From: a virus
Direction: 5' to 3' (one strand)
DNA: 38,080 nucleotides
Virus record (IMG/VR): IMGVR_UViG_3300045988_140278
Position numbers and translations under genes: made by a program. This document shows, in pieces, positions 3,100 through 36,027 of this stretch. A model generated the notes under the pieces. The model did not search any database. It was not told where the DNA came from and saw only the letters and a program-made list of their open reading frames with translations. Position 1 is the stretch's first letter. Each line of letters begins with the position of its first letter.

Positions 3100-4653
3100 T
3101 CATTTCGTCCTTTCCCACACATATGCGCCCAGCGAAGGGCGCTGCTCCCAGATGCCGCCGAAGTCACTAGCCGGATTGGCTCCGGTGGTGTTCATCACCA
3201 CATAGCCAATCGGCATCACGGGTCCACCTCCGGCCGAGGTGGCGTGCGCGGTGATGACGCCATCATCGTTGACGGTGATGGTGCTGCCGTCCGGTTTGAC
3301 GCCGCCGATTGTGCCGTTGGTGGCGGCTGGAAGCGTGTAGTTCTCCAATCCGTCGAGTTTCTTTTTGTCCGCAGCGCTCATGAGTCCTGATCCGTTGACT
3401 GTGGCCTCCGCTGCCGTGAGGTGCACGGCCTGACCATTTCTGCTCGCGGATAAGGGAAGGGCCGCGGTTATAGCCGCCACGTTCGCCGCCGCTATGGCGT
3501 TGGCTTCGGTGGCTGTCTGCTGCGCCTTGCCGATCTCGGACGAGAAACCGGATGCGAGCGTGTACGCGTCGGTGGCGGTCTTCTCCACCCCGTCGACGCG
3601 GCTCGGAGTCACCACGGCCGAGAACGTGTTGTTCTTCATCGTGATGGTCGTGCCATCCGCGTAATACGTAGCACCGGAACCACCGGATTCCGCCGTGCCG
3701 CTGAGGCTTGTGGTGACGCCGTCCGCGGTGCCGCATTCGTAGTCGACGCTCATGATGCCGTTGTTGACCTTGACGATTTTCTTGGAGATCGGCACGGTAA
3801 TCGTGATGCCGAGCCGGTTGTCTCGGCCGGTGACGGTATCTCCCACATCCATCGAGAGGCTACGGTCGTTGAGAGTGACGCTCACGCCGCCCTGTGTCTG
3901 GAGCTCTTCGAGTTTCTCTTTGGTTTTCTCGTTGAGTTCGTCGGCTTGGGCATTGCTGTAGTCGTAGATGGCTGTGTATTCCGCGAGCCCTGTGAGCGTC
4001 TTGGATTGGCTGACCTTGCCGTTGGAGTCCGCGTACCAGTGGACGACCATGCGTTCATGCAGATCCCCTTGCCCCAAGCCGATGAGGTGGTTCACCGGCT
4101 GCGAGTCGAGCGACGCCTGGAAGACGAGCAGGTCGCTGTCGATGGTGTCGCCGTAATGATCGACTGGTTTGGCGATGGCGTGCACGTGGCCGTCAAGCCA
4201 TGTGAGTCGGAGTTTCGCGTTGTTTGCCGTGAGCATCTTGGTGACGCCCGTATACGCATCCGTGTATCGGTCGAACTGCCAGCCGCCGATGGTCACGGTG
4301 CTTGCATCGGCGGTGAACAAGCTATCGAGGCCGATGCGTTTGAACAACGTGTTGAGGATTGTCGCGGCGTTGCCGCTCACGGTGAGGTAGTCCTTACCCG
4401 CATCGGGCTGGAGGATTCGACGTGAGAGCATGCCATGCCAGGTGGGGCCTTCCACGCTGCCGTCCGTGTTACGGACGGTGACCATGCCGCCATACTCGGT
4501 GCCGTCCATCATGATGAGAGAGCCGGCCGCCGGTTGTGGCAGACAGGTGAGTTTGAAGTCGTTCTCATCGCTGCCGTAGGCCAGGTCGAGCTCGTAGTCG
4601 TCGAGGGATGCGATGGGCTTGCGAGCGCTGTCGGTGATTATGAGGTCAGCCAT
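3100..4653 (-). CDS. Tail-associated protein (Tal; prophage-tail / Gp37-like N-terminus), 517 aa
   Basis: ATG at 4653 with AGGAG 10 nt upstream. The N-terminus MADLIITDSARKPIASLDDYELDLAYGSDENDFKLT is typical of siphovirus Tal proteins. Located directly after Dit. Has the fibre-tip motif at its C-terminus. Confidence 0.75.
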   Translation of the reverse strand: MADLIITDSARKPIASLDDYELDLAYGSDENDFKLTCLPQPAAGSLIMMDGTEYGGMVTVRNTDGSVEGPTWHGMLSRRILQPDAGKDYLTVSGNAATILNTLFKRIGLDSLFTADASTVTIGGWQFDRYTDAYTGVTKMLTANNAKLRLTWLDGHVHAIAKPVDHYGDTIDSDLLVFQASLDSQPVNHLIGLGQGDLHERMVVHWYADSNGKVSQSKTLTGLAEYTAIYDYSNAQADELNEKTKEKLEELQTQGGVSVTLNDRSLSMDVGDTVTGRDNRLGITITVPISKKIVKVNNGIMSVDYECGTADGVTTSLSGTAESGGSGATYYADGTTITMKNNTFSAVVTPSRVDGVEKTATDAYTLASGFSSEIGKAQQTATEANAIAAANVAAITAALPLSASRNGQAVHLTAAEATVNGSGLMSAADKKKLDGLENYTLPAATNGTIGGVKPDGSTITVNDDGVITAHATSAGGGPVMPIGYVVMNTTGANPASDFGGIWEQRPSLGAYVWERTK

Positions 4654-13479: not shown

Positions 13480-14277
13480 CTACTCTCCTTTCTGCCCTTT
13501 GAGGGCGATTCGAATGGCGAGGTCGAGCGCTTCCGCTTCGGCTTTCCGGTTGGGCTCCTCGGACTTGGCCCCTTGGGGCTCCTCGTTCTTGGCCTTGTCC
13601 GGCTCCGATGCCTTCGCACCGTCGCTCTGGGTGTTTTCCTGCTCCTGGCTGGCCGTCGCCGATGCCAGAAAATCCTTCATTTGTTTGGAGGCCTGCGCGA
13701 GTTGTTCGCTGATGCTGGTGAGCATGTCCACGTTCGCGGCGCTGATCATGCGGCCGGCTTTGGTGAATTGTTCGCTGATGCTTTTGATGGCGACGACGCT
13801 GGTGTCCTGGTTCGCTCCGATGGGGACGAAGCTGGCCTCGTAGACGGTGAGTTTCCGGAGCTCGTTGGCTTTGGTGCCGTCGTCGAGGGTGACGGTGCCT
13901 TCGTCGTCCACGTCGAATGCGAAGGAGAGCTGCGAGATTCGTTTGGCTTTCACGAGCCGGTAGGTTTGCGCGGCCTTGGGCGAGTCCATGTCGAAGCTGC
14001 CGCGGATCCACCAGCCGTGGTCGTCTTCGCCCATGTCGGTGACGCCTCCGATGTTGTAGTCGGGGTCGTCCATGCGGTGCCCGTAGAGCACAGGCATGGT
14101 GTTGCCGCTTTCCTTCCAGTGGGTGATGCTGTCGAGGAACGCTCCGGGGGCTACCACGTCGCCGTAGCAGTCGGGTTGGCGGGTGAACGTGCTGGGATAG
14201 GCGATGAATTCGCCTTCCTGCAGGTCGTCGGTCTCGTTGTTGGTCTTGAACCGGCAATCAAGCTGTTTGGTCCGCAT
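13480..14277 (-). CDS. Prohead (HK97-family, S78-like) protease with acidic scaffold-like tail, 265 aa
   Basis: ATG at 14277 with AGGAG 7 nt upstream. ...GEFIAYPSTFTRQPDCYGDVVAPGAF...MPVLYGH... Lies between portal and capsid. Confidence 0.85.
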   Translation of the reverse strand: MRTKQLDCRFKTNNETDDLQEGEFIAYPSTFTRQPDCYGDVVAPGAFLDSITHWKESGNTMPVLYGHRMDDPDYNIGGVTDMGEDDHGWWIRGSFDMDSPKAAQTYRLVKAKRISQLSFAFDVDDEGTVTLDDGTKANELRKLTVYEASFVPIGANQDTSVVAIKSISEQFTKAGRMISAANVDMLTSISEQLAQASKQMKDFLASATASQEQENTQSDGAKASEPDKAKNEEPQGAKSEEPNRKAEAEALDLAIRIALKGQKGE

Positions 14278-15766
14278 GCTGTTGCTCCTTCGCGTATTCG
14301 TCATGGGCTTTGCGGGTTTCGTCCAGGGCGATGAGCCCGCTGTTGAATTGGTCGATATGCGCGGTGATGGTCAGGTCGGATTGGAGCTCGTTCTGCCATT
14401 TGAGCCAGCCGATGCTTTCCACGTCGATGCCGGCGCCGAGTTTGCTGCGCACGCTTTTGTCGAGCCTTGCCCTCCACATGGCGATGATGTGGTTCTTCGC
14501 GGTTTCGTCCGTATCGGATGAGGGCCGTATCGGGTCGCCGCCGTCCTGAGGGCTTGCCTGGCCTCCCTGGGTGACGTTGAGTGGCACCGTGAGGCTGTCG
14601 CCGCCTTCGATGCGGGGCAGGTTCTGTGTGGCTCGGGCTTCGTTGGGTGTGATCCACGGTGCTCCCACCGATGTGGAGAGCACGCTGGCCTGTTCCTCGA
14701 AGTCGCCGCTCAGTTTCGCGCGGATGTCGAATTCCACGTAGTCGAGCGGGTCGGCGCCGATCATCGTGGCGAGGAACGTGTTGAGCCGGTCCTCGATCAT
14801 GCGCATGGTCGGGCCCAAGGTCTCCGAATACAGCATTTTGCGGAATTCCTTGGTGTTGGAGAAGTTCGCGTTGTCGAGGATGCCGACCATGACCGGGCTG
14901 ACGTGGTAGATGCTGGCCACGGTCTGCAGGCTGAGCTTCGTGACTTCGCTGAATTCCTCCTCGCGCGCGTTGAAGCCGAGGCGTTTGAGTTCCATGCCGT
15001 CTTCGAGCAGCGGGGTGCTGCCGGCGCGGGCTCCCTTGTCGGTGAATTCCTTCCAGCCGCGGGCGAAGCGTTCGCGCGCGGTGTCGTCCCACGGCGGCGC
15101 GTCCTTCGGTCTGACGAGCACGGTGCCCACTCGGCCGCCGCGCTGCCATGTCTGCGTGCGGTAGCTCCAGGCTTGGATCTGCTCGTTGATGATGTCCTTC
15201 AAAGCCATGACCGGCGTGACCCCGTTGGTCGGGTCGGTGGGATTCCAGCCATGGAAGACGAGCATGTCCTCGGCAGGCACGTCGATCCATCCACGGCCGA
15301 GTCCCGTATCCACGCGGTAGGAGGCCGGGGCGAACACGCTGCCTTCCTGCTTGGCGGTCACCCATGATGGGGGTATCGGCCTGATCTGCCAGCCGCCGAA
15401 GCGTTCCATGTCCCGGTCGGGGGCTTGGGTGACGATCCAGTAGGCCACGTCGTGGAGTGCCAGATCCGCGGTCAATTGGCGGAGCAGCTCGAAGCCGGTC
15501 ATGTCTGGATTCGGCTGCTTGAGAAGGTTGATTAGTGGCGAATCCGTGATGCGCTGGCGGTCGGTATCGGAAATTCTGCGGAATTCCTTCAATCCGACCT
15601 GAGCGACGTTGTCGGCGAGGAAGCTGATGACCGTGCGCAGATGCGGCTGGGTCTTGTACAGTTCGGTCTCCGATTGGCCTTGGATGATGGTCATCGCGTC
15701 GGCCATGTCGAAGCTGATGTGGTAGGTGGGGCGGAATATGTCGGTGAGTTTCTGCCAGATGCTCAA
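14258..15766 (-). CDS. Portal protein, 502 aa
   Basis: TTG start at 15766 with GGAGG 8 nt upstream. Size, and position after TerL. Confidence 0.9.
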   Translation of the reverse strand: MSIWQKLTDIFRPTYHISFDMADAMTIIQGQSETELYKTQPHLRTVISFLADNVAQVGLKEFRRISDTDRQRITDSPLINLLKQPNPDMTGFELLRQLTADLALHDVAYWIVTQAPDRDMERFGGWQIRPIPPSWVTAKQEGSVFAPASYRVDTGLGRGWIDVPAEDMLVFHGWNPTDPTNGVTPVMALKDIINEQIQAWSYRTQTWQRGGRVGTVLVRPKDAPPWDDTARERFARGWKEFTDKGARAGSTPLLEDGMELKRLGFNAREEEFSEVTKLSLQTVASIYHVSPVMVGILDNANFSNTKEFRKMLYSETLGPTMRMIEDRLNTFLATMIGADPLDYVEFDIRAKLSGDFEEQASVLSTSVGAPWITPNEARATQNLPRIEGGDSLTVPLNVTQGGQASPQDGGDPIRPSSDTDETAKNHIIAMWRARLDKSVRSKLGAGIDVESIGWLKWQNELQSDLTITAHIDQFNSGLIALDETRKAHDEYAKEQQHADQTA

Positions 15767-15781
15767 GATTCAGCCTCCTTC

Positions 15782-17386
15782 CTAGAGAACGAGCAGTCCG
15801 TGTCCGGTTTCGGTGTCGTATGCGCTGCGCTGTTGTTTCACCGGTTCGGCGTTCATGGTTTCCAACGCGTAGAGCGCCTGGCTTTCGGCGATGAGCCCGC
15901 TGATGTGCATGGCCGATTTCTGCCGGTCCCACACTTCGACTTCGCCAAGCCGTCTGGTGATGGCCACGCTCACCTGCTGTTCGATGGCCGGTTGCGGCAG
16001 ATGCCGGAGTTTGCCTTCCTTCACGCGGTCCTTGAACCGGCCTGTGCATGCGCCCACCCTGAATCCCTCGATGAGATGTACGGTCCAGCCGGCTTCGGTG
16101 AGAGGATCGCAGAAGTCGACGGCCGGGCATCCCTTGGATTGGATGGCGATCTCGGTGATGTTCGGCCATGATTCACGCAGCATGCCCAGATACTTGGGTA
16201 CCCAGAGCATGCCGTCGCGCCGCATGATCAGTTCAACGTGTGGCAGACCGTCGGCCCGGTATCCGGCGGCTGCGATGTATGTGGTCTCACGGTCCGCCGA
16301 GGTATCCACGCTGAGCACCACACGGTTTTCGAACGGGATACTGGATTTCTTGTCGATGCCGCGCTTCCATTGCTTCGGATCGATGAACGGCGTAATGTCC
16401 GCGGTCACCCACTGGCAGAGCACCTCGGTGCGATATGCCGCTTCGGTCATGCCGTTGATGTCGGCGATCACGCTTCGGTAGGTCATCGGCCCATAGCCGA
16501 GGGAAGGATTCGCCTGACGTATGCCATCCAGGTCATCGAGCCCGCACCCATCCGGCGCGCTCCATTCGAAGTACCCGTAGGATGCGTCGTGCGCCTCCGT
16601 CCATTCTTCGACGGTCTGCTGGCCGGTTTCGACGCTCGCGTTCCACGAGTCGGAGAGCCGGCGTCCCTCGTCCACTACCCTGCGCAGCACGATGCTGCGG
16701 TAGTCGCCGGCGTTGCTGATGCCCCACAGTTGGCTGGACCAGATGGCCTTCGTGGTCTGGCTGACCGCGTTCCAGCCATCGTCCGTATGCTGCTCGCGAA
16801 GCTCATCGAACACAACGCGGCTGGCGGACTTCGAACGGATGTTCTTATCGGCTCGAACGATGTACTGCGCCTTGTTGCGGCAGATGATTGCCTCTTCGCC
16901 GTGGCTGTTGTTGACCCGCTGCACACGCTTCTGGAGGGCAGGCACCGCGAGCGCGGCTTCCTCGTCGGTTTGTGGCGTGGGGTTGCACCAGTTGAGTACG
17001 GCGGAGTATGGGGCTCTGGCGTTGTCGAGGGTCTGGGCTGCTCCGACGATGAGGAACTTCCATGATGGGGAGAGTTTGGGCCGGCGGCCGGAGTCGACGA
17101 ACAGCCACCATGCGCATAGGACGCTCATGACGGTGGTTTTTCCGTTCTGTCGTGCGACTTCGGCGACGACTCGGCGGAACCGGTAGGATCCGTCGGGGTT
17201 GGTTTCGAGTCCGTGGATGAGCAGCCATTTCTGCCATGGGTAGAGGTTCACGTGGAGGAATCGTTCGGCGAATTCGATGACCCCGTAGCCGTCGGATGTG
17301 GCCGGGGTGAGGGGCCGGAGCGGTGGCGTGTAGATTCTGGGGGTGGTGATGCCGTGGGCGTCGTCGTCGATCTCGCCGATGTCCAT
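15782..17386 (-). CDS. Terminase large subunit, 534 aa
   Basis: Walker A-like RQNGKTT. Start placed at the second ATG (17386), 6 nt after GGAGG. The ORF-track ATG at 17392 abuts the RBS. Confidence 0.93.
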   Translation of the reverse strand: MDIGEIDDDAHGITTPRIYTPPLRPLTPATSDGYGVIEFAERFLHVNLYPWQKWLLIHGLETNPDGSYRFRRVVAEVARQNGKTTVMSVLCAWWLFVDSGRRPKLSPSWKFLIVGAAQTLDNARAPYSAVLNWCNPTPQTDEEAALAVPALQKRVQRVNNSHGEEAIICRNKAQYIVRADKNIRSKSASRVVFDELREQHTDDGWNAVSQTTKAIWSSQLWGISNAGDYRSIVLRRVVDEGRRLSDSWNASVETGQQTVEEWTEAHDASYGYFEWSAPDGCGLDDLDGIRQANPSLGYGPMTYRSVIADINGMTEAAYRTEVLCQWVTADITPFIDPKQWKRGIDKKSSIPFENRVVLSVDTSADRETTYIAAAGYRADGLPHVELIMRRDGMLWVPKYLGMLRESWPNITEIAIQSKGCPAVDFCDPLTEAGWTVHLIEGFRVGACTGRFKDRVKEGKLRHLPQPAIEQQVSVAITRRLGEVEVWDRQKSAMHISGLIAESQALYALETMNAEPVKQQRSAYDTETGHGLLVL

Positions 17387-17396
17387 GCGCATCCTC

Positions 17397-18002
17397 CTAG
17401 GTCATCTTCGCCAGGTATTCCTCGAATTCGTCGGACACCTGCTTCGGCTTCGCATCCTGGATCGCGTTGGCGATGGAGCCGCGAGCGTCCGGCGTGGCTC
17501 CGAGCTCCCGTAGCACGTTCATCAAGTGCGGCATGAGGTAGAGGGCTTTGGTGACTTCGATGCCGGTGCCGTGGGTGACGGCGTAGTCGATCTGGCTGGC
17601 GATCATTCGGCCGGATTGAATCAGAGCGCTGTCTTCGGGCTTCAGCCGGTCATCGAGCGCTTTGACGGTGTCCTCATATGCTTTGAGCAGGCCCTTCTGC
17701 GCCTTGGTCGGCGCATCCATGAGCCGCAGGCGTTGTTCGCCAATCTTGAGGCATTGGTCGATGGCCTTAGCATCCTGTTGCAGGGCGAGCGGGTAGATCT
17801 GCCTGTAGATGCTGTCGAGGCGTTCGATCTCGATGCTGCGCGCGGCGTCCGGGTTCTTTCCGGATCGCGCGCTTTTGAGGGCGCGGGTGATTGCCGCCAT
17901 CGCGCTTGTGGTCGACCGGTAGCCCATCGTGGTTTTGATCTGGCCGATGGGTGTGGCGGCGAGGAACAGGTTGAGGGCCTTGGCGTCGGATTCGGCGGTC
18001 AA
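17397..18002 (-). CDS. Terminase small subunit (position-based), 201 aa
   Basis: Helical protein immediately upstream of TerL. TTG start with GGGAGG upstream. Confidence 0.65.
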   Translation of the reverse strand: MTAESDAKALNLFLAATPIGQIKTTMGYRSTTSAMAAITRALKSARSGKNPDAARSIEIERLDSIYRQIYPLALQQDAKAIDQCLKIGEQRLRLMDAPTKAQKGLLKAYEDTVKALDDRLKPEDSALIQSGRMIASQIDYAVTHGTGIEVTKALYLMPHLMNVLRELGATPDARGSIANAIQDAKPKQVSDEFEEYLAKMT

Positions 18003-18018: not shown

Positions 18019-19312
18019 TCAGTTGTCCTTGGTGAAGTCGTGGGGTTTGCCGTCGAGTTCCGGCATGATGCCGGTGTATTCCTGGAAGCGCCGGCAGATC
18101 ACGTCGGCGTATTTCGGGTCGAGTTCGACGACGAGCGCTTTCATGCGCAGCCCGTGGGCGGCGATGAGCGTGGAGCCGCTGCCGGCGAACGGGTCATAGA
18201 CGATGCCGCCGGGTCTGCAGCTGTTCCTGAGCATGCTTTGGATGAGTTCAACGGGTTTCATCGTCGGATGCTCCCTGTTGGCTTTGGGCTTGGGGAATTG
18301 CAGGACGGTCGATTGTTTGTTGTCGCCGCGCCAGTTCGCGCTTCCTCGGCCGAGGCGCCCAGCCCCCCCCCCGCGTGAATCCGTAGCCGATGGGTTCGTA
18401 TTCGGTGAGCGGTTCGTCGGGCATGGTGCCGGCGGCTATCGGTTCGGTCTGCTGCTGGTAGTCGGAGTGGCCGAGCGTGAACTGGTCCTTGACCCAGATG
18501 AGGGTCTGCCGCCATCTGAGGCCGATGGATTCTACTGCCTGCTGGAATTGGACGCGCAGGCTGTCGGAGTGGGCCATGTAGAACGGGCAGCCGGGCTTGC
18601 AGATCCTGGCAGCGACTTGCATGGCCTGTTTGGTGATTTCGACGGCCTTGTTGGGGTCGTTGTCGTTCTCGATGGTGAGACGGTCCTTGGTGCCGCCCTG
18701 GTATGCGACGCCATATGGCGGGTCGGTCCAGATGCATGATGGCTGGCCGATCATGCCGGCCGCCTTCGTGACGAGTTGGTCGTCAGTGCTGGAGCCGACG
18801 ACGAGCAAGCTGTCACCGAGCTTCCAGATTTGGCCGGGCTTCGTATACGGCTTCTTCGGCACCGGAGGCACATCGTCGGGGTCTTTGAGCTCGCTGGGCG
18901 CGGGCTTCGCGGCGGCGATGATCTCGGCGATGTCGTCCGCGCTGTATCCGGTGCCCACCGTCGGCTGTTCGATGCTTTCCAGAAGTTCGGCAAGCGCGTC
19001 GGTGTCGTAGCCACCCAAGTCGGCGATGCGGTTGTCCGCGAGCACGATCTGCGCCGTCTGATCCGCGTCAAGGTCGACGATGACGGCTTCGATGGTCGTC
19101 CAGCCGAGGCTTTTGGCCGCCTGCCATGTGTGGTTTCCGGCAAGGATTTCGTTGGCGATGCCGGTCTTGGTGCCTTTGTTGACGACGATGGGCTTGTATT
19201 GGCCGCGCGCCTTGAGGCTTTCGGCGATTGCTGCCATGTTGCCGCGCCTCGGGTTGCGATGGTACGGGGTGAGATCGCCGATGGGCATGGTCTCGATTTT
19301 CAGATTCGCCAT
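18019..19312 (-). pseudogene. ParB-like N-terminal domain fused to a beta-class N6/N4 DNA methyltransferase; reading frame broken (+1 nt) at a G10 tract
   Basis: The N-terminal part has a ParB-like domain (...PIGDLTPYHRNPRR...) and TDPPYG (motif IV). The C-terminal part (ORF 18019-18261) has HPTMKPVELI and DPFAGSGST (motif I). The span is 1294 nt. With one G fewer it forms a continuous 430-aa ORF reading ...GYGFTRGGAGRLGRGSANWRGDNKQSTVLQFPKPKANREHPTMKPVELI... Confidence 0.85.
18363..18372 (-). repeat. Homopolymeric G10 (C10 on the plus strand) tract inside the methyltransferase gene
   Basis: Read directly from the sequence. The ORF-track translation TRGGGW confirms 10 G. Confidence 0.95.
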
Positions 19313-19417
19313 CATCGGCTCCTTTCCCGCGCGCACGCGCGATGGGGTGGTCAATATCGGAGGGAGAGGTCTTGCGGGCACGCGGGTAGTGTCCCGCCCG
19401 TGGCTGGTTTTGGGATT

Positions 19418-19690: not shown

Positions 19691-20008
19691 CTATGCTGTT
19701 ATGATCCATTGTCTGCTGAGTGTGCCGATTGGTGTGGCTGGGTCTTTGTTGCCGCGCAGGTTGTTGCATTGCGTATGGCTTGGCCTGAAGCCGGCCGGGT
19801 CATGCTGGAGATCGGGGCGTTTGGTCACCGGGTAGAAGTGGTCGAGGTTGTACGAGTCATCGCTGCTGTTCTGCGGTGCGTCATAGTCGATGGGCATTCC
19901 ACACAGCCAGCAGACCGCATGCTCGGCCTTGCACTTCAGGAAGAACGCCTTGCGGTCCTTCTCGAACTGGCGTCCGCCCTTTCTGACCTTTCTGCTGGGA
20001 GCCGTCAT
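19691..20008 (-). CDS. HNH endonuclease (packaging-associated), 105 aa
   Basis: CWLCG...DHFYPV...HTQCNNLRGN motif. ATG at 20008 with GGGAGG 7 nt upstream. First gene after the terminator and close upstream of the terminase genes. Confidence 0.8.
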   Translation of the reverse strand: MTAPSRKVRKGGRQFEKDRKAFFLKCKAEHAVCWLCGMPIDYDAPQNSSDDSYNLDHFYPVTKRPDLQHDPAGFRPSHTQCNNLRGNKDPATPIGTLSRQWIITA

Positions 20009-20043
20009 TCTGTGGCCTCCCTTCGCGGGATCGGGCATAAGAA

Positions 20044-20070
20044 AACCCCGAAGCGCAAGCGCCCGGGGTT
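20044..20070 (-). terminator. Intrinsic terminator at the early/late boundary
   Basis: AACCCCG (20044-20050) pairs with CGGGGTT (20064-20070), with a GCGC-AA-GCGC sub-stem in the loop. On the minus strand it is followed by TTTTCTTAT. Confidence 0.65.
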
Positions 20071-20154
20071 TCAAAGTATCCAAGTGGTTACAAAAATAAC
20101 CAACGCTAGTAGTTCTAGCGGTGACAGTTTGCGTCTGTCAAGACCTTCGGCGTG

Positions 20155-24100: not shown

Positions 24101-24339
24101 GGCTGTTCCTCCGAATGCCGGTAGAGGCTGCGTGATGCGGCGGCGAGCGCCCTTCGGGTCTGGTTGAGGCCTGTGAGCGCCTGGGTGAGGTGTTCGAAGG
24201 TGTCTTCGGGGGCTCCTTGGTCGCGGATCGCGTTGACGATGCTGATGAGCGTGTCCGTGAGGGTGCTGGCGGTGTCGATGCGGCCTACGGCGAGCGCCTG
24301 TTGGCGTTTCATGCGTTGTGTTTCGTGTTGCGGGCTCAT
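24097..24339 (-). CDS. Hypothetical helical protein, 80 aa
   Basis: ATG at 24339 overlaps the ParB-like stop (ATGA). The remainder of ORF-track entry 24097-25206 is out-of-frame Arg/His/Pro noise. Confidence 0.6.
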   Translation of the reverse strand: MSPQHETQRMKRQQALAVGRIDTASTLTDTLISIVNAIRDQGAPEDTFEHLTQALTGLNQTRRALAAASRSLYRHSEEQP

Positions 24340-25793
24340 TGCTGGTCCTTCCGGGTGGTGAGGCTGCCGTCGAGTGCCTGTTGTTCGCGGCTGCTGGGTT
24401 GGTGGCCGAGCCATGCGAGCGCCTGGTAGTAGACGTTGACGGTTTTGAGGGTGCTGCCGTAGCCGGTGCCGTCCCATGTTTCGGGGGTGATGCGTGCTTC
24501 CTGGCGGGCGAGCATGACGAGGGTGAGTTGGCGGAGTTCCTGGCCGGGTTTGTCGGCCCGGCGGCGCAGCTCGTTGAGGTTGGCCGTGGTGTCGAGGTGG
24601 TAGATGCCTTCCTTCGGGTTCTTGTGCTCGTCGGGCAGGGGTTTGCCGCTGATCTGGTTGTAGGCGGTGATCATCTGGTCGCGTTGGTTGGCGTCGAGGC
24701 CGGTGGGTAGGTAGGTGCCGGTGCCGGTGCCGATGCCGATGGTTTCGAGTCTGGCGAGGGTTTGGATGGCGTCGCGCATCTGCTGGCCGGTCCAGTCGGT
24801 GCTGGTTTTGCGGATCCACTCGCGTCGGAGGCGGCTGCTGGTGGTCGTGTATTCGCGTAGTTTGGTCTTGCGTTCGCGTTCCTTGGCGGTGATGGCCTTG
24901 AGTCGTTCGACCTCCGCGGTGTTTTCCGTGGGATCCTTGGGGGTCGTGGGTTCGGCCCATCCGTAGCAGGAGTTTTCGGTGGTGAGGATGAGGCTGGCGG
25001 GGTTGCCGCCGTTGTTCAGGTATTCCTTCCATGATTCGGCGAATGGTTTCGACGTGGTGGGTGCGTGGGTGGCGCCGTAGCCGTCCATGTCGGTCCACAG
25101 GTTCTTGACCTTGATGGCGTGCAGGTGGTTGGCGGTGATGTATTCGTCGGCGGCCTGGCGCCATTGGTTCATGCGTTTGTGGTCGCGCGCGTTCTCGAGT
25201 TCCCACCGCCAGTCCGGGCTTTCGGCTTTCTCGGCGAGCTTCGCCTGCGTCTCGGGGTCGTCGTTGAATTCAGCGAGCGCGTCGAGCTGGCCGAGGGTGA
25301 GCTGGCTGAAGTCCTTGGCTTTGCCGCGGGTGGTCTGCGGGATGCCGGCGATCTTGATGCGGCGGCGCACGAAGCTGGCGCTGCGGCCGGTTTTGTCGGC
25401 GAGTTCGTCGATCGATGCGCCGAGGTCGAGGAGTCCTTGGTATCCGTCGGCTTCCTCGATGGGGGTCAGGTCGGCGCGTTGCGTGTTCTCGATGAGCATG
25501 ATCTCGCGTTCCTCCCTGTCGGTGAGGTCGCGGATGGTGCAGGGGATCATGCTCAGGCCGGCTTTGATGCAGGCCTGGTAGCGGCGGTGGCCGATGACGA
25601 TCCGGTAGAGGGGTTTGCCGTCCTTATCGTTGCCGGCCGGGGTGACGAGCAGCTGCTGCTGGAGTCCCTGGGCCTTGATGCTGGCGGCGAGTTCGGTCAC
25701 GTCGCCCACGCTCTTGCGCGGGTTGGCCGGGTTCGGCTTGAGCTGCGTGGCGGGGATGTCCACGATCAGCGGGCTTGTGGCGTTGGTTTCCAT
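24336..25793 (-). CDS. ParB/Srx-like N-terminal domain protein, 485 aa
   Basis: ...LKPNPANPRK...IVIGHRRYQA...ENTQRADLTPIEEA... are ParB-box motifs. The C-terminal ~300 aa are unassigned. Confidence 0.8.
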   Translation of the reverse strand: METNATSPLIVDIPATQLKPNPANPRKSVGDVTELAASIKAQGLQQQLLVTPAGNDKDGKPLYRIVIGHRRYQACIKAGLSMIPCTIRDLTDREEREIMLIENTQRADLTPIEEADGYQGLLDLGASIDELADKTGRSASFVRRRIKIAGIPQTTRGKAKDFSQLTLGQLDALAEFNDDPETQAKLAEKAESPDWRWELENARDHKRMNQWRQAADEYITANHLHAIKVKNLWTDMDGYGATHAPTTSKPFAESWKEYLNNGGNPASLILTTENSCYGWAEPTTPKDPTENTAEVERLKAITAKERERKTKLREYTTTSSRLRREWIRKTSTDWTGQQMRDAIQTLARLETIGIGTGTGTYLPTGLDANQRDQMITAYNQISGKPLPDEHKNPKEGIYHLDTTANLNELRRRADKPGQELRQLTLVMLARQEARITPETWDGTGYGSTLKTVNVYYQALAWLGHQPSSREQQALDGSLTTRKDQQ

Positions 25794-29628: not shown

Positions 29629-30830
29629 GCGCCCCGGATTCAACTTGTAAGTGCAACGGCTGGTTTCGGGTCGGCTTGTTTTGATTGTAGCTTGGCCATC
29701 TCCTCGTCCCATACCTCGTTGGGCGTTTTGTATCCGAGGAGTTTCATGGGGGTGTCGTTGATCTCCCCGACGATCGCGTCGAGCTCGTCCTGCGTGAGAT
29801 CCTCGAAACTGGTTCCCTTGGGCAGATAGCGGCGGATCCTGCCGTTCCTGTTCTCGTTGCTGCCGCGCTGCCAGGAGCTGTACGGGTCGGCGAAGTACGT
29901 GAGCATGCCCAGCGCCTCGTCCACCAGCACGTGCAGGGACGCCTCCGTGCCGTTGTCCCACGTGCGGTCGACGCGCGCGGCCGGCGGCATGCCCTTGAAT
30001 ATCTCGTACTCGGCCCTGGCCGTGGCGGACGCGCTCTTGTCGTCGACGAGCCGGGCGAACAGCCTGCGGCTCCTGCGCTCCACCTGCGTGTTCATGCAGC
30101 GCCTCGACGGCGCGGCGCCGACCACCGTGTCCGACTCGAAATGGCCGAACCCCTTCCTGGATCCGACCGCCTCGGGCCGGTCCGCGATGGGCACGCGCAT
30201 CGGGATGCGCGGCCCTTTCGCCTTCCTGCCCTTTTTCCTCGTCCGGCGTTTCCTGCCGCGCGCCAGATACTGGCGCAGGTCCAGCGCCCGCTGCGGCTTG
30301 GCGTAGATCCACTGGTAAAGGCACTCGTGGCTGATCCGCATCGACGGGTCGCCGGCGCACTGGGCCTTCAACCGTCCCTCGATCAGTTCCGGGCTCCACC
30401 CCCTGCGCAGCGCGTCCAGCACCCAGGCGCGCAACGGGCCCGAGTCCATGCGACGCGGCTTGCGGGATCCGCGCCGGCGCAGGTCCGCCTTCCTCTGCGC
30501 GGCCAGCGCCGAATAGAACGGACCCGAGGTCCACGGCCCGGTCTTCAGCCGTTTCGGCCGGTAGGGGCGGTACGACCCGTTCTCGTTGGACGCGAACCAC
30601 AGGCCGCGCCTCAGCTCGCGGCTCACCGTGGACTTGTCCCGGCCGATCCTCTCCGCGGTCCGCCGAATGCTCAGATGCTGTTCGCAATGCAGCTTCTCGA
30701 TCAGGATCCTCTCCTCGGACGACAGGTGCGAATACTGTTGACCCATGAGTGCGACACCTTCTTAAGTTAGAAACTTCGAACACTTCCAACCCTAGACAAG
30801 GTGTTGCACTTCTATTTAGAACCCGGGCGC
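29629..30830 (-). mobile_element. IS30-family insertion sequence (~1.2 kb)
   Basis: Single DDE transposase flanked by imperfect terminal inverted repeats. Left: GCGCCCCGGATTCAACTTGTAAGTGCAAC (29629-29657). Right, reverse complement: GCGCCCGGGTTCTAAATAGAAGTGCAAC (30830-30803). Exact ends and the target duplication are not resolved. Confidence 0.75.
29640..30746 (-). CDS. IS30-family DDE transposase, 368 aa
   Basis: N-terminal HTH (...SIRRTAERIGRDKSTVSRELRRG...). GHFESDTV...TWDNGTE...SWQRGSNENRNGRIRRYLPKGT is characteristic of IS30 transposases. Confidence 0.9.
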   Translation of the reverse strand: MGQQYSHLSSEERILIEKLHCEQHLSIRRTAERIGRDKSTVSRELRRGLWFASNENGSYRPYRPKRLKTGPWTSGPFYSALAAQRKADLRRRGSRKPRRMDSGPLRAWVLDALRRGWSPELIEGRLKAQCAGDPSMRISHECLYQWIYAKPQRALDLRQYLARGRKRRTRKKGRKAKGPRIPMRVPIADRPEAVGSRKGFGHFESDTVVGAAPSRRCMNTQVERRSRRLFARLVDDKSASATARAEYEIFKGMPPAARVDRTWDNGTEASLHVLVDEALGMLTYFADPYSSWQRGSNENRNGRIRRYLPKGTSFEDLTQDELDAIVGEINDTPMKLLGYKTPNEVWDEEMAKLQSKQADPKPAVALTS

Positions 30831-33443: not shown

Positions 33444-33494
33444 AAAGCCCCCCGACACTCATTGTGAGCGCCGGGGGCTTTCGTTTGTTTCGTT
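33444..33494. terminator. Bidirectional intrinsic terminator between the plus-strand operon and the integrase gene
   Basis: AAAGCCCCC (33444-33452) pairs with GGGGGCTTT (33473-33481), followed by CGTTTGTTTCGTTT. An A-run precedes it, serving the opposite strand. Confidence 0.7.
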
Positions 33495-34771
33495 TATGAG
33501 GCTTCCTCAATGACCTCGGCTTCGATGATGTCGGCGTCGTCGTGGAGGTCGGGTATGGCCTGACCGAGGAGTTTGGCGAGGCTGGCTTCGTCTCTGTGGG
33601 TGTAGTGGTTGGTCATCGTGATGCTGGTGTGGCCCATGATGGCGGTGCGTGCGTCGTCGGGCATGTTGGCGCGGGCCGTCATGCTGGCGGTCCAGTGGCG
33701 TGCGCTGTGGATGGTGACCGGTGGAAGGCCCGCGGCCTTCAGAGCCTTGTTCCAGTTGTAGCGTTCGGTGCTGCTGCGTATCGGGTTGCCGCGCGAGTTG
33801 GTGAATATGAGCTGGCGCGGGCCGATGCCGAGTCGTTTGACGCGCGCCCACAATCGCTGCCACAGGCTCGTGGATATGGGCACGAACCGGTGCGCGGCGC
33901 GGGTCTTGGGCGTGGTGAGCCACAGGATGCCGTACAGGTGCTCGGCTTTGAGCCAGGCGGGTATGACGGCTTGTTCCGGCCTGCCGTATTGCTGGATCTG
34001 CTGCTGTACGTTGATGCCGGGCACGCCGTCGCGTTGTTCGAGCTCGTAGGGCATGAGCGCGTAGCGTTCGCCTTCCCTCATGCCGGCCGCGAACGCGAGT
34101 TCGAACAGCAGCATCCAGGATTCATCGACGTCCACGGTCAGGGCCGGTCCGCGTCGTTTCGCTCCCCGGTTGGGCACGGCCTCGATCAGCTGCTTCGGCT
34201 GGTCTGGCGAGAGGATCCTGGTCTCGGTGGGCTCCACCCTTGGCGGCTTGACCCTGCGGCACGGATCCACGGGGATGAGCTCCTCGAGCTCGGCCTGGTC
34301 GAGCATCATCTTCAGGCTCACGAAATGGTCCTTGAGCGTGGAGGGCGCGAGCCGTTTGGAAAGCACGCGCATGCATTGGCGGATATGGTCAGGGGTCAGC
34401 TCGGTGAGGCGGATACAGCCGATGACCTCCATGCACGCATGGATCCTGCCGGCGCGGGTGCGGTACGTGGTGGGCTTGACGTTGAGCCGGTATTCCTCCA
34501 GCCACCGCTCCGCGTAATCCTTCAGGTACGGGCTCTTGGCGCCGGGCAGCAGGCCGGTGCGTTCCATCTCGGCGACCTTCGCGTCGAACCGTTCGCGGGC
34601 ATCGGCCTTCGTCCGGCCGGTCGCCGCTATGAACCGCCGCTTGCCGGTCGCGGGGTCCCGGCTGATCTCGCGGCGGAACTCCCATCGTCCATCCGCGCGG
34701 TGGATGATGCTGCCCGCGCCCTTCGTGCGCCGCGACCGTCCGCCCGTCTTCCGTGAGGTCTTCGCCGTCAT
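33494..34771 (-). CDS. int: Tyrosine integrase, 425 aa
   Basis: Arm-binding-type N-terminus (GSIIHRADGRWEFRREI...), SAM-like core, and a catalytic region ...MREGERYAL...IHSARHWTAS...MGHTSITMTNHYTH. ATG at 34771 with AGGAGA upstream. Confidence 0.9.
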   Translation of the reverse strand: MTAKTSRKTGGRSRRTKGAGSIIHRADGRWEFRREISRDPATGKRRFIAATGRTKADARERFDAKVAEMERTGLLPGAKSPYLKDYAERWLEEYRLNVKPTTYRTRAGRIHACMEVIGCIRLTELTPDHIRQCMRVLSKRLAPSTLKDHFVSLKMMLDQAELEELIPVDPCRRVKPPRVEPTETRILSPDQPKQLIEAVPNRGAKRRGPALTVDVDESWMLLFELAFAAGMREGERYALMPYELEQRDGVPGINVQQQIQQYGRPEQAVIPAWLKAEHLYGILWLTTPKTRAAHRFVPISTSLWQRLWARVKRLGIGPRQLIFTNSRGNPIRSSTERYNWNKALKAAGLPPVTIHSARHWTASMTARANMPDDARTAIMGHTSITMTNHYTHRDEASLAKLLGQAIPDLHDDADIIEAEVIEEAS

Positions 34772-34859
34772 GGTGTTCTCCTTGTGTCCGAGAGCACTCA
34801 ATGAGCGTCCACGCACATGGCGAGAACCGTTGCGGCGAGTGTCCTCCGGTGTTTCCGAA

Positions 34860-35215: not shown

Positions 35216-35317
35216 TCAGGGCATGCCTTGGTCGTCGGCGAGCGCCGCATACAGTTCGAGTGCGAGTACGGCTGCGATCAGGCCCGCGCATTCGACGAGC
35301 CATTGGATGCGGTTCAT
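35216..35317 (-). CDS. 33-aa hydrophobic peptide coupled to the endolysin gene
   Basis: ATG at 35317 overlaps the lysin stop (ATGA). MNRIQWLVECAGLIAAVLALELYAALADDQGMP. Confidence 0.4.
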   Translation of the reverse strand: MNRIQWLVECAGLIAAVLALELYAALADDQGMP

Positions 35318-36027
35318 ACGCCGAGCTGTTCCATGGTCTTGCGCACGAGCGCGTCGATCTGGTCGAAGCGGCTCCACCATGGGGCGCCGTTGTTGCCGTG
35401 GATCAATGGCACGCCTGCCTGCTGGAGCAGGTTGGCCTGGTCGGGGTGTGTGAGCGCGGTGCGCCCCTTGCCGGGCTCGCAGTACCAGATGACTCCCGTG
35501 GAGTCGTTGCGGATCATCATTGCCGCCATGATATCTACCTCCTGTGTTCCGGTGTTGCCGGATAGCTTCTGTTGGACGAGTTGGACGAAGGCTCCCCAGT
35601 TGTAGCCGAAGCGCGTGAAGTACGGGATGGGGTCCGTATGGTCGGATCCGCCGTAGGTCTGGCTGAACCATTGGTGCGGGTGCATGCGGTCGACGCCCCA
35701 CCAGTGCGCGCGGAGGCGCTGGGCTATCACGTCGGCTGCGATGTCGATGCCGCGCCAGAAGTCCGACGCGTTGGTGGCCTCGCAGATCTCGATGCCCTCG
35801 CACGTGCCGTTGCCGTTGCCGACCTGCCAGCACAGCCGGTCGTAGGGCACGCAATGAATCGCCTCGGTCCAGTCGGACGTGAGGTGCACCGCGTAGTCGT
35901 AGCCTCGCGACCACAGGTCCCGGTGGTTGCGGGCCGTGGCGCCGGGATTCGCCGTGCTGTGGACGGCGAACAGGGACGGATTGAGGTAGCCGTGCCCTGC
36001 GTTGACGATCTCCTCCTTGATCTGCAC
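35314..36027 (-). CDS. Endolysin, N-acetylmuramoyl-L-alanine amidase (Amidase_2/PGRP-like) with C-terminal binding domain, 237 aa
   Basis: ...AVHSTANPGATARNHRDLW...AVHLTSDW...CWQVGNGNGTCEGIEICE... GTG start at 36027. Follows the holin. Confidence 0.85.
   Translation of the reverse strand: MQIKEEIVNAGHGYLNPSLFAVHSTANPGATARNHRDLWSRGYDYAVHLTSDWTEAIHCVPYDRLCWQVGNGNGTCEGIEICEATNASDFWRGIDIAADVIAQRLRAHWWGVDRMHPHQWFSQTYGGSDHTDPIPYFTRFGYNWGAFVQLVQQKLSGNTGTQEVDIMAAMMIRNDSTGVIWYCEPGKGRTALTHPDQANLLQQAGVPLIHGNNGAPWWSRFDQIDALVRKTMEQLGV

Follow-up and report, generated by a model that had tools for sequence, protein, structure and literature searches.

In the phasevarions of host-adapted pathogens, a simple-sequence repeat within the open reading frame (ORF) of a DNA methyltransferase turns the enzyme ON or OFF by frameshifting. 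Type III mod genes, Type I hsd genes and the Type IIG gene cj0031, which carries a poly-G tract, are known cases. These genes are chromosomal parts of restriction-modification systems; they are expressed in the cell and reprogramme the expression of host genes. Here we describe a related arrangement in a different setting, namely a run of 10 G residues (G10) within the methyltransferase gene of a temperate phage, IMG/VR record IMGVR_UViG_3300045988_140278, where the enzyme is an orphan and probably expressed late. The whole stretch of DNA analysed, called the window below, is 38,080 nucleotides (nt) long, and a Bifidobacterium longum host is indicated by named cluster members such as WP_207390583.1 and WP_222860535.1. 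We argue from comparison of related sequences that the tract is probably a contingency locus, i.e. a hypermutable simple-sequence repeat, and that the methylase is currently OFF.

Poly-G switches are already known from the chromosomes of this host genus. The sortase-dependent pilus genes of B. breve UCC2003 are switched by replication slippage in poly-G tracts (Penno et al. 2022, PMC9187656). Error-corrected maximum-depth sequencing of the G11 and G12 pilus tracts revealed mixed lengths, at ∼37% and 60%, in single-colony cultures, and the authors warn that tract lengths in databases are merely nominal (PMC9187656). They also mention ‘other relevant G-tracts’ in passing, with no methylase or prophage named (PMC9187656). 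The window locus resembles the pilus tracts in host genus, in having an intragenic run of 10–12 Gs that joins or splits two ORFs, and in showing strain-variable lengths in databases. Unlike the pilus genes, which are chromosomal and encode surface structures, the window gene is phage-borne, concerns DNA modification and lies in a packaging operon.

To our knowledge, phage contingency loci have so far been shown experimentally only in virulent coliphages. In T2, DNA glucosylation is reversibly switched by an A-run in the agt gene (Gomez, Barrick and Waters 2025, bioRxiv 10.1101/2025.10.21.683753), so that the population is hedged between two opposed defences, one directed at modified and the other at unmodified DNA. 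The same authors point to a poly-G tract, as yet unstudied, in the methylase gene of another phage, BPP-1 of Bordetella (bioRxiv 10.1101/2025.10.21.683753). As in agt, the homopolymer described here lies in a phage gene for a DNA-modifying enzyme. The differences are that T2 is a virulent coliphage in which a run of ∼9 As in a glucosyltransferase gene was studied by experiment, whereas the window is from a temperate actinobacterial phage with a G-run in a methyltransferase gene, and the evidence is comparative. The kind of mechanism we propose is already known, given phase-variable methylases, Bifidobacterium poly-G switches and phage contingency loci. We found no earlier description of a phase-variable bifidophage methylase in the literature covered, which did not extend to subscription journals.

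On the minus strand the window reads ggattcacgcGGGGGGGGGGctgggcgcc, in which inspection of the reverse complement places the G10 run at 18372–18363. On the coding strand the tract is embedded as TACGGATTCACGC-G10-CTGGGCGCCTCGGCCGAGG. The gene and its parts are as follows.

18019–19312, minus strand: whole gene for a ParB-fused β-class DNA methyltransferase, one ORF of 430 or 431 amino acids (aa) if the tract is G9 or G12
18248–19312, minus strand: upstream ORF as read with G10, 354 aa, with ParB N-terminal domain, linker and motif IV (TDPPYG)
18363–18372, minus strand: homopolymeric G10 tract, a putative slippage site on the basis of the sequence read, edits in silico and lengths of 7–14 in relatives
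18355–18362, minus strand: 8-nt patch CTGGGCGC, which abuts the 3′ side of the tract and sets the in-frame lengths at G9 and G12
18248–18276, minus strand: possible restart signal of the 80-aa ORF, a putative function
18019–18261, minus strand: downstream 80-aa ORF, from the Met of HPTMKP (motif X) through motif I (FAGSGST) to motifs II–III

The tract encodes part of an Arg-Gly-Gly-Gly stretch within a glycine-rich loop, GG.GRLGRG, that sits between the catalytic half of the methylase and the half that binds S-adenosylmethionine (AdoMet). The upstream ORF, which would be 355 aa long from an alternative ATG at 19315, runs past the Gly codons into a 37-codon out-of-frame tail and ends at TGA 18250–18248. 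With G10, this ORF ends after motifs IV–VIII; motifs X and I, which with motifs II–III form the AdoMet-binding part, are left in the separate 80-aa ORF, one frame away. Both halves are needed for a single PF01555 domain. When the tract is set to G9, the fused protein matches Pfam PF01555 (N6_N4_Mtase) over residues 193–405, spanning the tract (79.4 bits, 4.8e-22; curated cutoff 26.7 bits), PF02195 (ParB_N) over residues 6–94 (40.6 bits, 2.8e-10; cutoff 26.3 bits) and PHROG 498, ‘DNA methyltransferase’, at 3e-113. The window encodes the OFF form of a member of the β-class methylase family.

An initial annotation made without database searches (the sequence-only reading) had assigned a ParB-like domain and TDPPYG to the upstream ORF, in agreement with the ORF listing and the ParB_N match. 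Its view that the fused product has the usual layout of a methylase also holds: motif IV precedes motifs X and I, which is the β permutation, and in the intact relative P0125 (L and P numbers designate relatives throughout) TDPPYG lies at residues 197–202, HPTMKP at 349–354 and FAGSGST at 376–382. It had further placed both FAGSGST and the whole of HPTMKPVELI in the 80-aa ORF; the former is there, and the HPT of the latter lies upstream of the ATG. If CcrM and M.BceJIV are a guide, the DPPY motif presumably points to N6-adenine, and the window methylase is an orphan enzyme of the DPPY type, with N6-adenine as its probable target. Actinophage orphan methylases and PHROG 498 share its family and its architecture of a ParB-like domain joined to an N6_N4 methylase, and relatives at 50–57% identity come from Microbacterium, Mycobacteroides and Leucobacter.

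Sequence matches in the PDB to β-class enzymes (TTHA0409, M.BceJIV, CcrM, N4CMT, M1.HpyAVI/‘DpnA’ and MboIIA) fall only at residues 344–425, the part cut off by G10. A structure model built with AlphaFold from a 15-sequence alignment covers the whole β-class fold, aligning in Foldseek over 250–300 columns with TTHA0409, M.BceJIV, CcrM and M1.HpyAVI, and its ParB-N fold matches the N-domains of CTP-binding ParB and Noc (E ∼1e-7). Scores of the predicted local distance difference test were 25–41 over residues 269–338, which include the tract loop, and on this model the loop is probably flexible. In-frame variants that have gained or lost a single Gly occur (429, 431 and 437 aa). Because of these variants and the low-confidence loop, we think it probable that the loop tolerates changes in length.

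Repeat length inside the ORF sets the reading frame. With the tract edited in silico to G9, the two ORFs become a single 430-aa ORF reading GFTRGGAGRLGRGSANWRGDNKQ and then HPTMKPVELI; G12 likewise gives a single ORF, of 431 aa. G7, G10 and G13 lead to a stop 37 codons past the Gly run, and G8 and G11 to a stop in the third frame. The window allele is ON at G9 or G12 and otherwise OFF. Our inspection and edits agree with the sequence-only reading on the position of the G10 run on the coding strand, on the fusion of the ORFs by G9 or G12, and on the end of the G10 product 37 codons later. Its equation of G9 with ON is correct for the window type of allele and incorrect for a second type, represented by L001, which is in frame at G7, G10 and G13.

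The tract is more than a chance feature. It is the sole homopolymer of at least 7, of any base, in the 38-kb window, and chance would give ∼0.07 C-runs of at least 10 on the strand concerned in 38 kb. GGG accounts for 7% of the Gly codons in the phage, and GGGGGG is not used for any of the 36 Gly-Gly pairs found in 15 other genes. From codon usage, the prior for CGG-GGG-GGG is ∼1e-3.

If the tract is a contingency locus, its length should differ among close relatives, and comparison of related phages, a check that the sequence-only reading had suggested, yielded lengths of G7 to G14, in all three frames and both ON and OFF, among near-identical alleles from independent isolates of B. longum, B. 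breve and B. imperatoris and from gut metagenomes. The census draws mainly on cluster members in Logan, ENA and NCBI, with 15 of 213 members listed, and is not a random sample. Pattern scans contributed 3 loci in IMG/VR and 3 in JGI metagenomes, and lengths of 7–12 were confirmed at the DNA level in 30 loci. Members of the clusters formed at 90% identity differ essentially at the tract only. A protein search with the fused sequence returned intact 430-aa proteins at 99%, 94% and 79% identity, along with truncated forms. BLAST of the locus against 50,697 GenBank phage records gave no close relative, only 66–71% patches in Mycobacterium, Arthrobacter and Gordonia phages.

At the DNA level, the intact relatives L001, L004, L005/L006, L009 and L014 carry G10, as the window does. 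In these relatives G10 is in frame because the sequence on the 3′ side of the tract is CGGCCGT (7 nt), one base shorter than CTGGGCGC. The ON register differs with allele type: window-type tracts are in frame at 3n, L001-type tracts at 3n+1 and the B. biavatii tract at 3n+2. The patch itself is hypervariable between alleles that are 99% identical, being CTGGGCGC, CGGCCGT or TCGCCGT (L001 3951–3957, L013, L016). The lengths found in the two main types are given below.

Window type, ON, G9: P0125 (= WP_222860535.1), P0127, P0132, P0134, P0158
Window type, ON, G12: P0130, 11 contigs
Window type, OFF, G10: P0121 (the window product, 5 contigs), P0123, P0124, P0129, P0133, P0157 and others
Window type, OFF, G11: P0122, 22 contigs
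Window type, OFF, further lengths: G13, G14, G7
L001 type, ON: G10, G7
L001 type, OFF: G8, G9 (27 contigs), G11, G12

Among the members listed, the window type was ON in 25 contigs and OFF in 53; the L001 type was ON in 49 and OFF in 48. Loci collected blind to frame, by DNA pattern scan and from GTDB species representatives, were ON in 4 cases and OFF in 6.

One explanation of the window allele is a sequencing or assembly artefact, in which an intact G9 gene was miscalled as G10; the sequence-only reading had considered a homopolymer miscall equally possible. Illumina sequencing does have problems at G tracts, a RefSeq call of G11 in B. breve corresponding to a real G11/G12 mixture (PMC9187656), and G9 versions of the window allele exist. 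However, the identical allele, G10 followed by CTGGGCGC, is found again in L002, L007, L108 and 17 similar places, and the contigs encoding exactly P0121 come from NCBI, ENA and Logan. These are independent assemblies from other projects and sources. Moreover, assembled lengths run from 7 to 14, and differences of at least 3 bases are beyond single-base miscalls. These data make an artefact a very unlikely explanation of the locus, and they do not support the even weighting given to it earlier.

A plain pseudogene would also be OFF: the methylase may have been inactivated by a frameshift and be decaying, the tract being incidental. The window gene is indeed out of frame, and OFF versions are very common, with the 80-aa ORF indexed as a separately called gene in 1690 sample blocks. 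One allele group, in which 203 nt of foreign sequence replace part of the gene, indicates that loss is possible. To assess decay, we consider the 108 codons 3′ of the tract (LGRGS to HDFT), for which the ratio of nonsynonymous to synonymous substitution rates (dN/dS) is 0.08–0.18 in all comparisons. The low ratio holds even where both members of the pair are OFF (window–L003, window–L016 and L003–L016), and over the whole set of comparisons the synonymous rate (dS) reaches 0.9–1.3. Further, ON forms of the same allele coexist with OFF forms, a second lesion is absent from the lineages compared, the L007-type group excepted, and the tract persists despite codon bias in synonymously diverged lineages; the sole deep pair measured, the window versus the P0003/L005 lineage, has dS ∼0.9 and retains the loop tract. 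Judged from these substitution patterns, strong purifying selection acts on the 3′ part of the gene, which is not a decaying pseudogene, an explanation to which we accordingly give very little weight.

The exceptional group comprises P0013, P0148, P0149 and P0150. In L007, 203 nt of unrelated sequence (3761–3963) stand in place of 166 nt of the methylase gene (window 18387–18549), and the replaced stretch ends 14 nt before the tract. Read on the reverse strand, the insert resembles a fragment of another small ORF, MCEARRAEYVRLLDEEGMNFTQAAQA. To judge from this sequence, the copies of the L007 group are truly inactivated.

The homopolymer is specific to the methylase gene. Related loci totalling 179 kb contain 29 G/C runs of at least 8, every one of them within this gene and 0 in the flanks. 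Loop tracts are found in phages of further Bifidobacterium species.

B. animalis phages: G10, ON (L103–L106); G9, OFF (L098)
B. pseudolongum phages: G9, OFF, four samples (L099–L102)
B. biavatii DSM 23969: G10, OFF
B. miconis 82T10: G7, OFF

Unlike these Bifidobacteriaceae phages, the more distant PHROG 498 relatives in IMG/VR have loop runs of only 2–3 G, as judged from 9 of 80 in which the loop motif was found; L018, which is 99% identical and has G12 in the loop, was not scorable in this survey. On the sequences compared, the homopolymer is a feature of Bifidobacteriaceae phage lineages. Homologues that lack the loop tract have G8–G9 tracts elsewhere in the gene, at three positions, each of which occurs both intact and split in public data.

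L017, 3477–3484: Alloscardovia metagenome-assembled genome, G8 at FTKGGQVW, OFF
L019 and L025, 2050: P0018 group, AFGGGQADC just before DPPY; G9, ON, in L019 and G8, OFF, in L025
L020, 2601–2608, and the P0011 group: NSCRRGGVV just before motif I; frameshifted in P0237, P0240 and P0245

The P0018 cluster, with 557 members, contains many fragments of 202–236 aa. That all four tract positions lie after the ParB domain was considered as evidence and rejected, the chance of this being ∼0.18.

The sequence-only reading had proposed a phase-variable switch, and this proposal gains strong support from the ON and OFF length alleles, the purifying selection downstream, the codon anomaly and the restriction of the tract to one gene; all of this support is comparative. 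We therefore favour a contingency locus, which would work as follows. Slipped-strand mispairing during DNA replication would add or remove Gs; we infer this cause, which the pilus tracts of B. breve make well supported for the host genus, and likewise the rate of switching. A window-type tract of G9 or G12 would give the full enzyme of 430 or 431 aa (ON). G10, like G7, G8, G11, G13 and G14, would cost the product motifs X and I–III while the ParB domain would still be made (OFF), and without these motifs OFF forms presumably do not bind AdoMet. From the place of the gene in an HNH-methylase-terminase-portal operon, it is probable that progeny phage DNA is methylated ahead of packaging when the genome is ON and left unmethylated when it is OFF, provided that the enzyme is active and made at that time. 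The late-operon position, between HNH and terminase genes, argues against expression in the lysogen, and we do not class the locus as a phasevarion. The benefit would most likely be bet-hedging, in that methylated DNA would escape classical restriction-modification and unmethylated DNA would escape methylation-dependent restriction; an arms-race argument of this kind has been put forward for the orphan methylases of actinophages (PMC9957025), and the A-run of T2 agt is an experimental case (bioRxiv 10.1101/2025.10.21.683753).

Switching would be needless if a G10 gene still yielded the full-length enzyme constitutively, by RNA-polymerase slippage or by +1 frameshifting on GGG-GGG. Long homopolymers generally promote transcriptional slippage, and tRNA-Gly would re-pair perfectly after a slip within the G run. 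On the other hand, no stimulatory RNA structure was found 3′ of the tract (z = 0.37 versus shuffles). A programmed signal needs a conserved out-of-frame length, but every register occurs. Given this, recoding seems to us highly improbable.

It is also conceivable that the OFF state is not a null state. The 80-aa piece could be restarted at ATG 18261, giving either an active two-chain methylase or a ribosome relay that protects the terminase genes. A Shine-Dalgarno-like AGGGAG (18276–18271) lies 9 nt before this ATG, the form among relatives being A[AG]GGAG. Both OFF frames stop close by, one at the ATG itself in an ATGA overlap (18260–18258) and the other 11 nt after it, at TGA 18250–18248, which arises from GTT followed by GAA. 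The signal rests on rare codons (AGG, 9% of Arg; GTT, 4% of Val) and is conserved in every loop-tract lineage; it is absent from Alloscardovia L017 and from L019/L025, whose tracts lie elsewhere. However, the ATG and the ATGA overlap come free, because constraints on the protein hold the Met and Lys of HPTMKP invariant, only about four codons hold the signal, and the lineages are related. We know of no split β-class amino-methyltransferase. The restart signal is suggestive as sequence; a split enzyme or relay is nonetheless an unlikely account of the locus.

The recurrence of tracts and the putative restart signal allow a broader proposal, which we put forward tentatively and consider doubtful as a whole. 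Temperate phages of Bifidobacteriaceae may have repeatedly evolved poly-G tracts in the ParB-fused methylase, at no fewer than four positions, and one lysogen lineage might release both methylated and unmethylated virions, as a hedge between restriction-modification and restriction that depends on methylation. Loop-tract lineages might then have added a restart site that keeps the terminase genes translated, or gives a two-chain enzyme, when the gene is OFF.

Several points weigh against a contingency locus. The evidence consists of assemblies, and an assembly gives at best the commonest tract length in a sample; as G tracts are difficult for Illumina sequencing (PMC9187656), length differences between assemblies could in part be technical. 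ON:OFF ratios near 1:2 and 1:1 among the listed members are those of drift alone and give no sign of selected switching; we had considered these ratios as evidence of selection and rejected them, since they match the neutral expectation. In the B. breve methylome, 12 orphan methylases had no detectable motif, and many of them lie in mobile genetic regions (PMC5829577), which fits late or silent expression and inactivity equally well. Finally, some alleles, those of the L007 type, are truly dead, and the gene is to that extent dispensable.

Bifidobacteria are notoriously hard to transform and to infect, owing to their restriction systems. The prophage is very common in human gut samples, with the split form alone indexed in the sample blocks counted above, and this prevalence and the recurrence of tracts at four sites are the points of interest. 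If the switch is real, it would rank as a comparatively well-supported contingency locus in a temperate phage of a gut commensal, and it would extend the concept of phage contingency loci and tie it to the poly-G switches of Bifidobacterium chromosomes. Absence of a motif for such orphan methylases in methylome studies may reflect the sampling of OFF states. In RefSeq the OFF fragments from the N-terminal side are called ‘ParB/RepB/Spo0J family partition protein’, and the name given to the 80-aa piece is ‘DNA methyltransferase’; with its label split in this way, the gene is hidden, and its description in B. longum genomes is systematically wrong.

Nearly all transcription of the window, a temperate siphovirus-like genome, is on the minus strand. 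The methylase belongs to a packaging operon with the order HNH-methylase-terminase-portal. Exonuclease genes were also identified; the other landmarks are listed below.

17397–18002, minus strand: small terminase, beginning 17 nt past the methylase stop (PF23931 on neighbours)
15782–17392, minus strand: large terminase, TerL
14258–15766, minus strand: portal
19691–20083, minus strand: HNH
33494–34816: tyrosine integrase
35314–36027: amidase
24336–25793, minus strand: free-standing ParB with ParB_N and HTH_ParB, 485 aa

Scanning of 17.3–21.2 kb found no promoter-like sites, and four terminator-like matches, no more than shuffles give; no terminator-like match lies on the coding strand between the HNH gene and the terminase genes. 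A 105-nt non-coding gap (19313–19417) lies upstream of the methylase start, between the HNH gene and the methylase-terminase genes, and contains a GC-rich hairpin (19381–19402) that was flagged in the terminator scan on the plus strand. The cos sites of phages with HNH-dependent packaging are often found between the HNH and terminase genes.

The free-standing ParB, which lies in the early/replication region, is a second ParB besides the domain fused to the methylase. Within the fused domain, P0143 and P0145, which carry the G10 OFF tract, have a 36-residue in-frame deletion (window ∼19115–19222); the deleted segment, between the slashes in AAIA/ESLKARGQ...HTWQAA/KSLGW, lies between short similar sequences. 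The integrase gene directly follows the lysis amidase gene, the two sharing a strand, and at its low-coordinate end the window breaks off amid tail genes. Given this arrangement, the window looks like a permuted or excised phage genome and not a prophage with host flanks; its two ends share no overlap. Between 28001 and 30000 the GC content falls to 0.57, and two skews that are constant elsewhere, negative for AT and positive for GC, vanish. This region may be a lysogeny-control region or a moron, and a protein with HTH_38 is encoded at 29640–30746.

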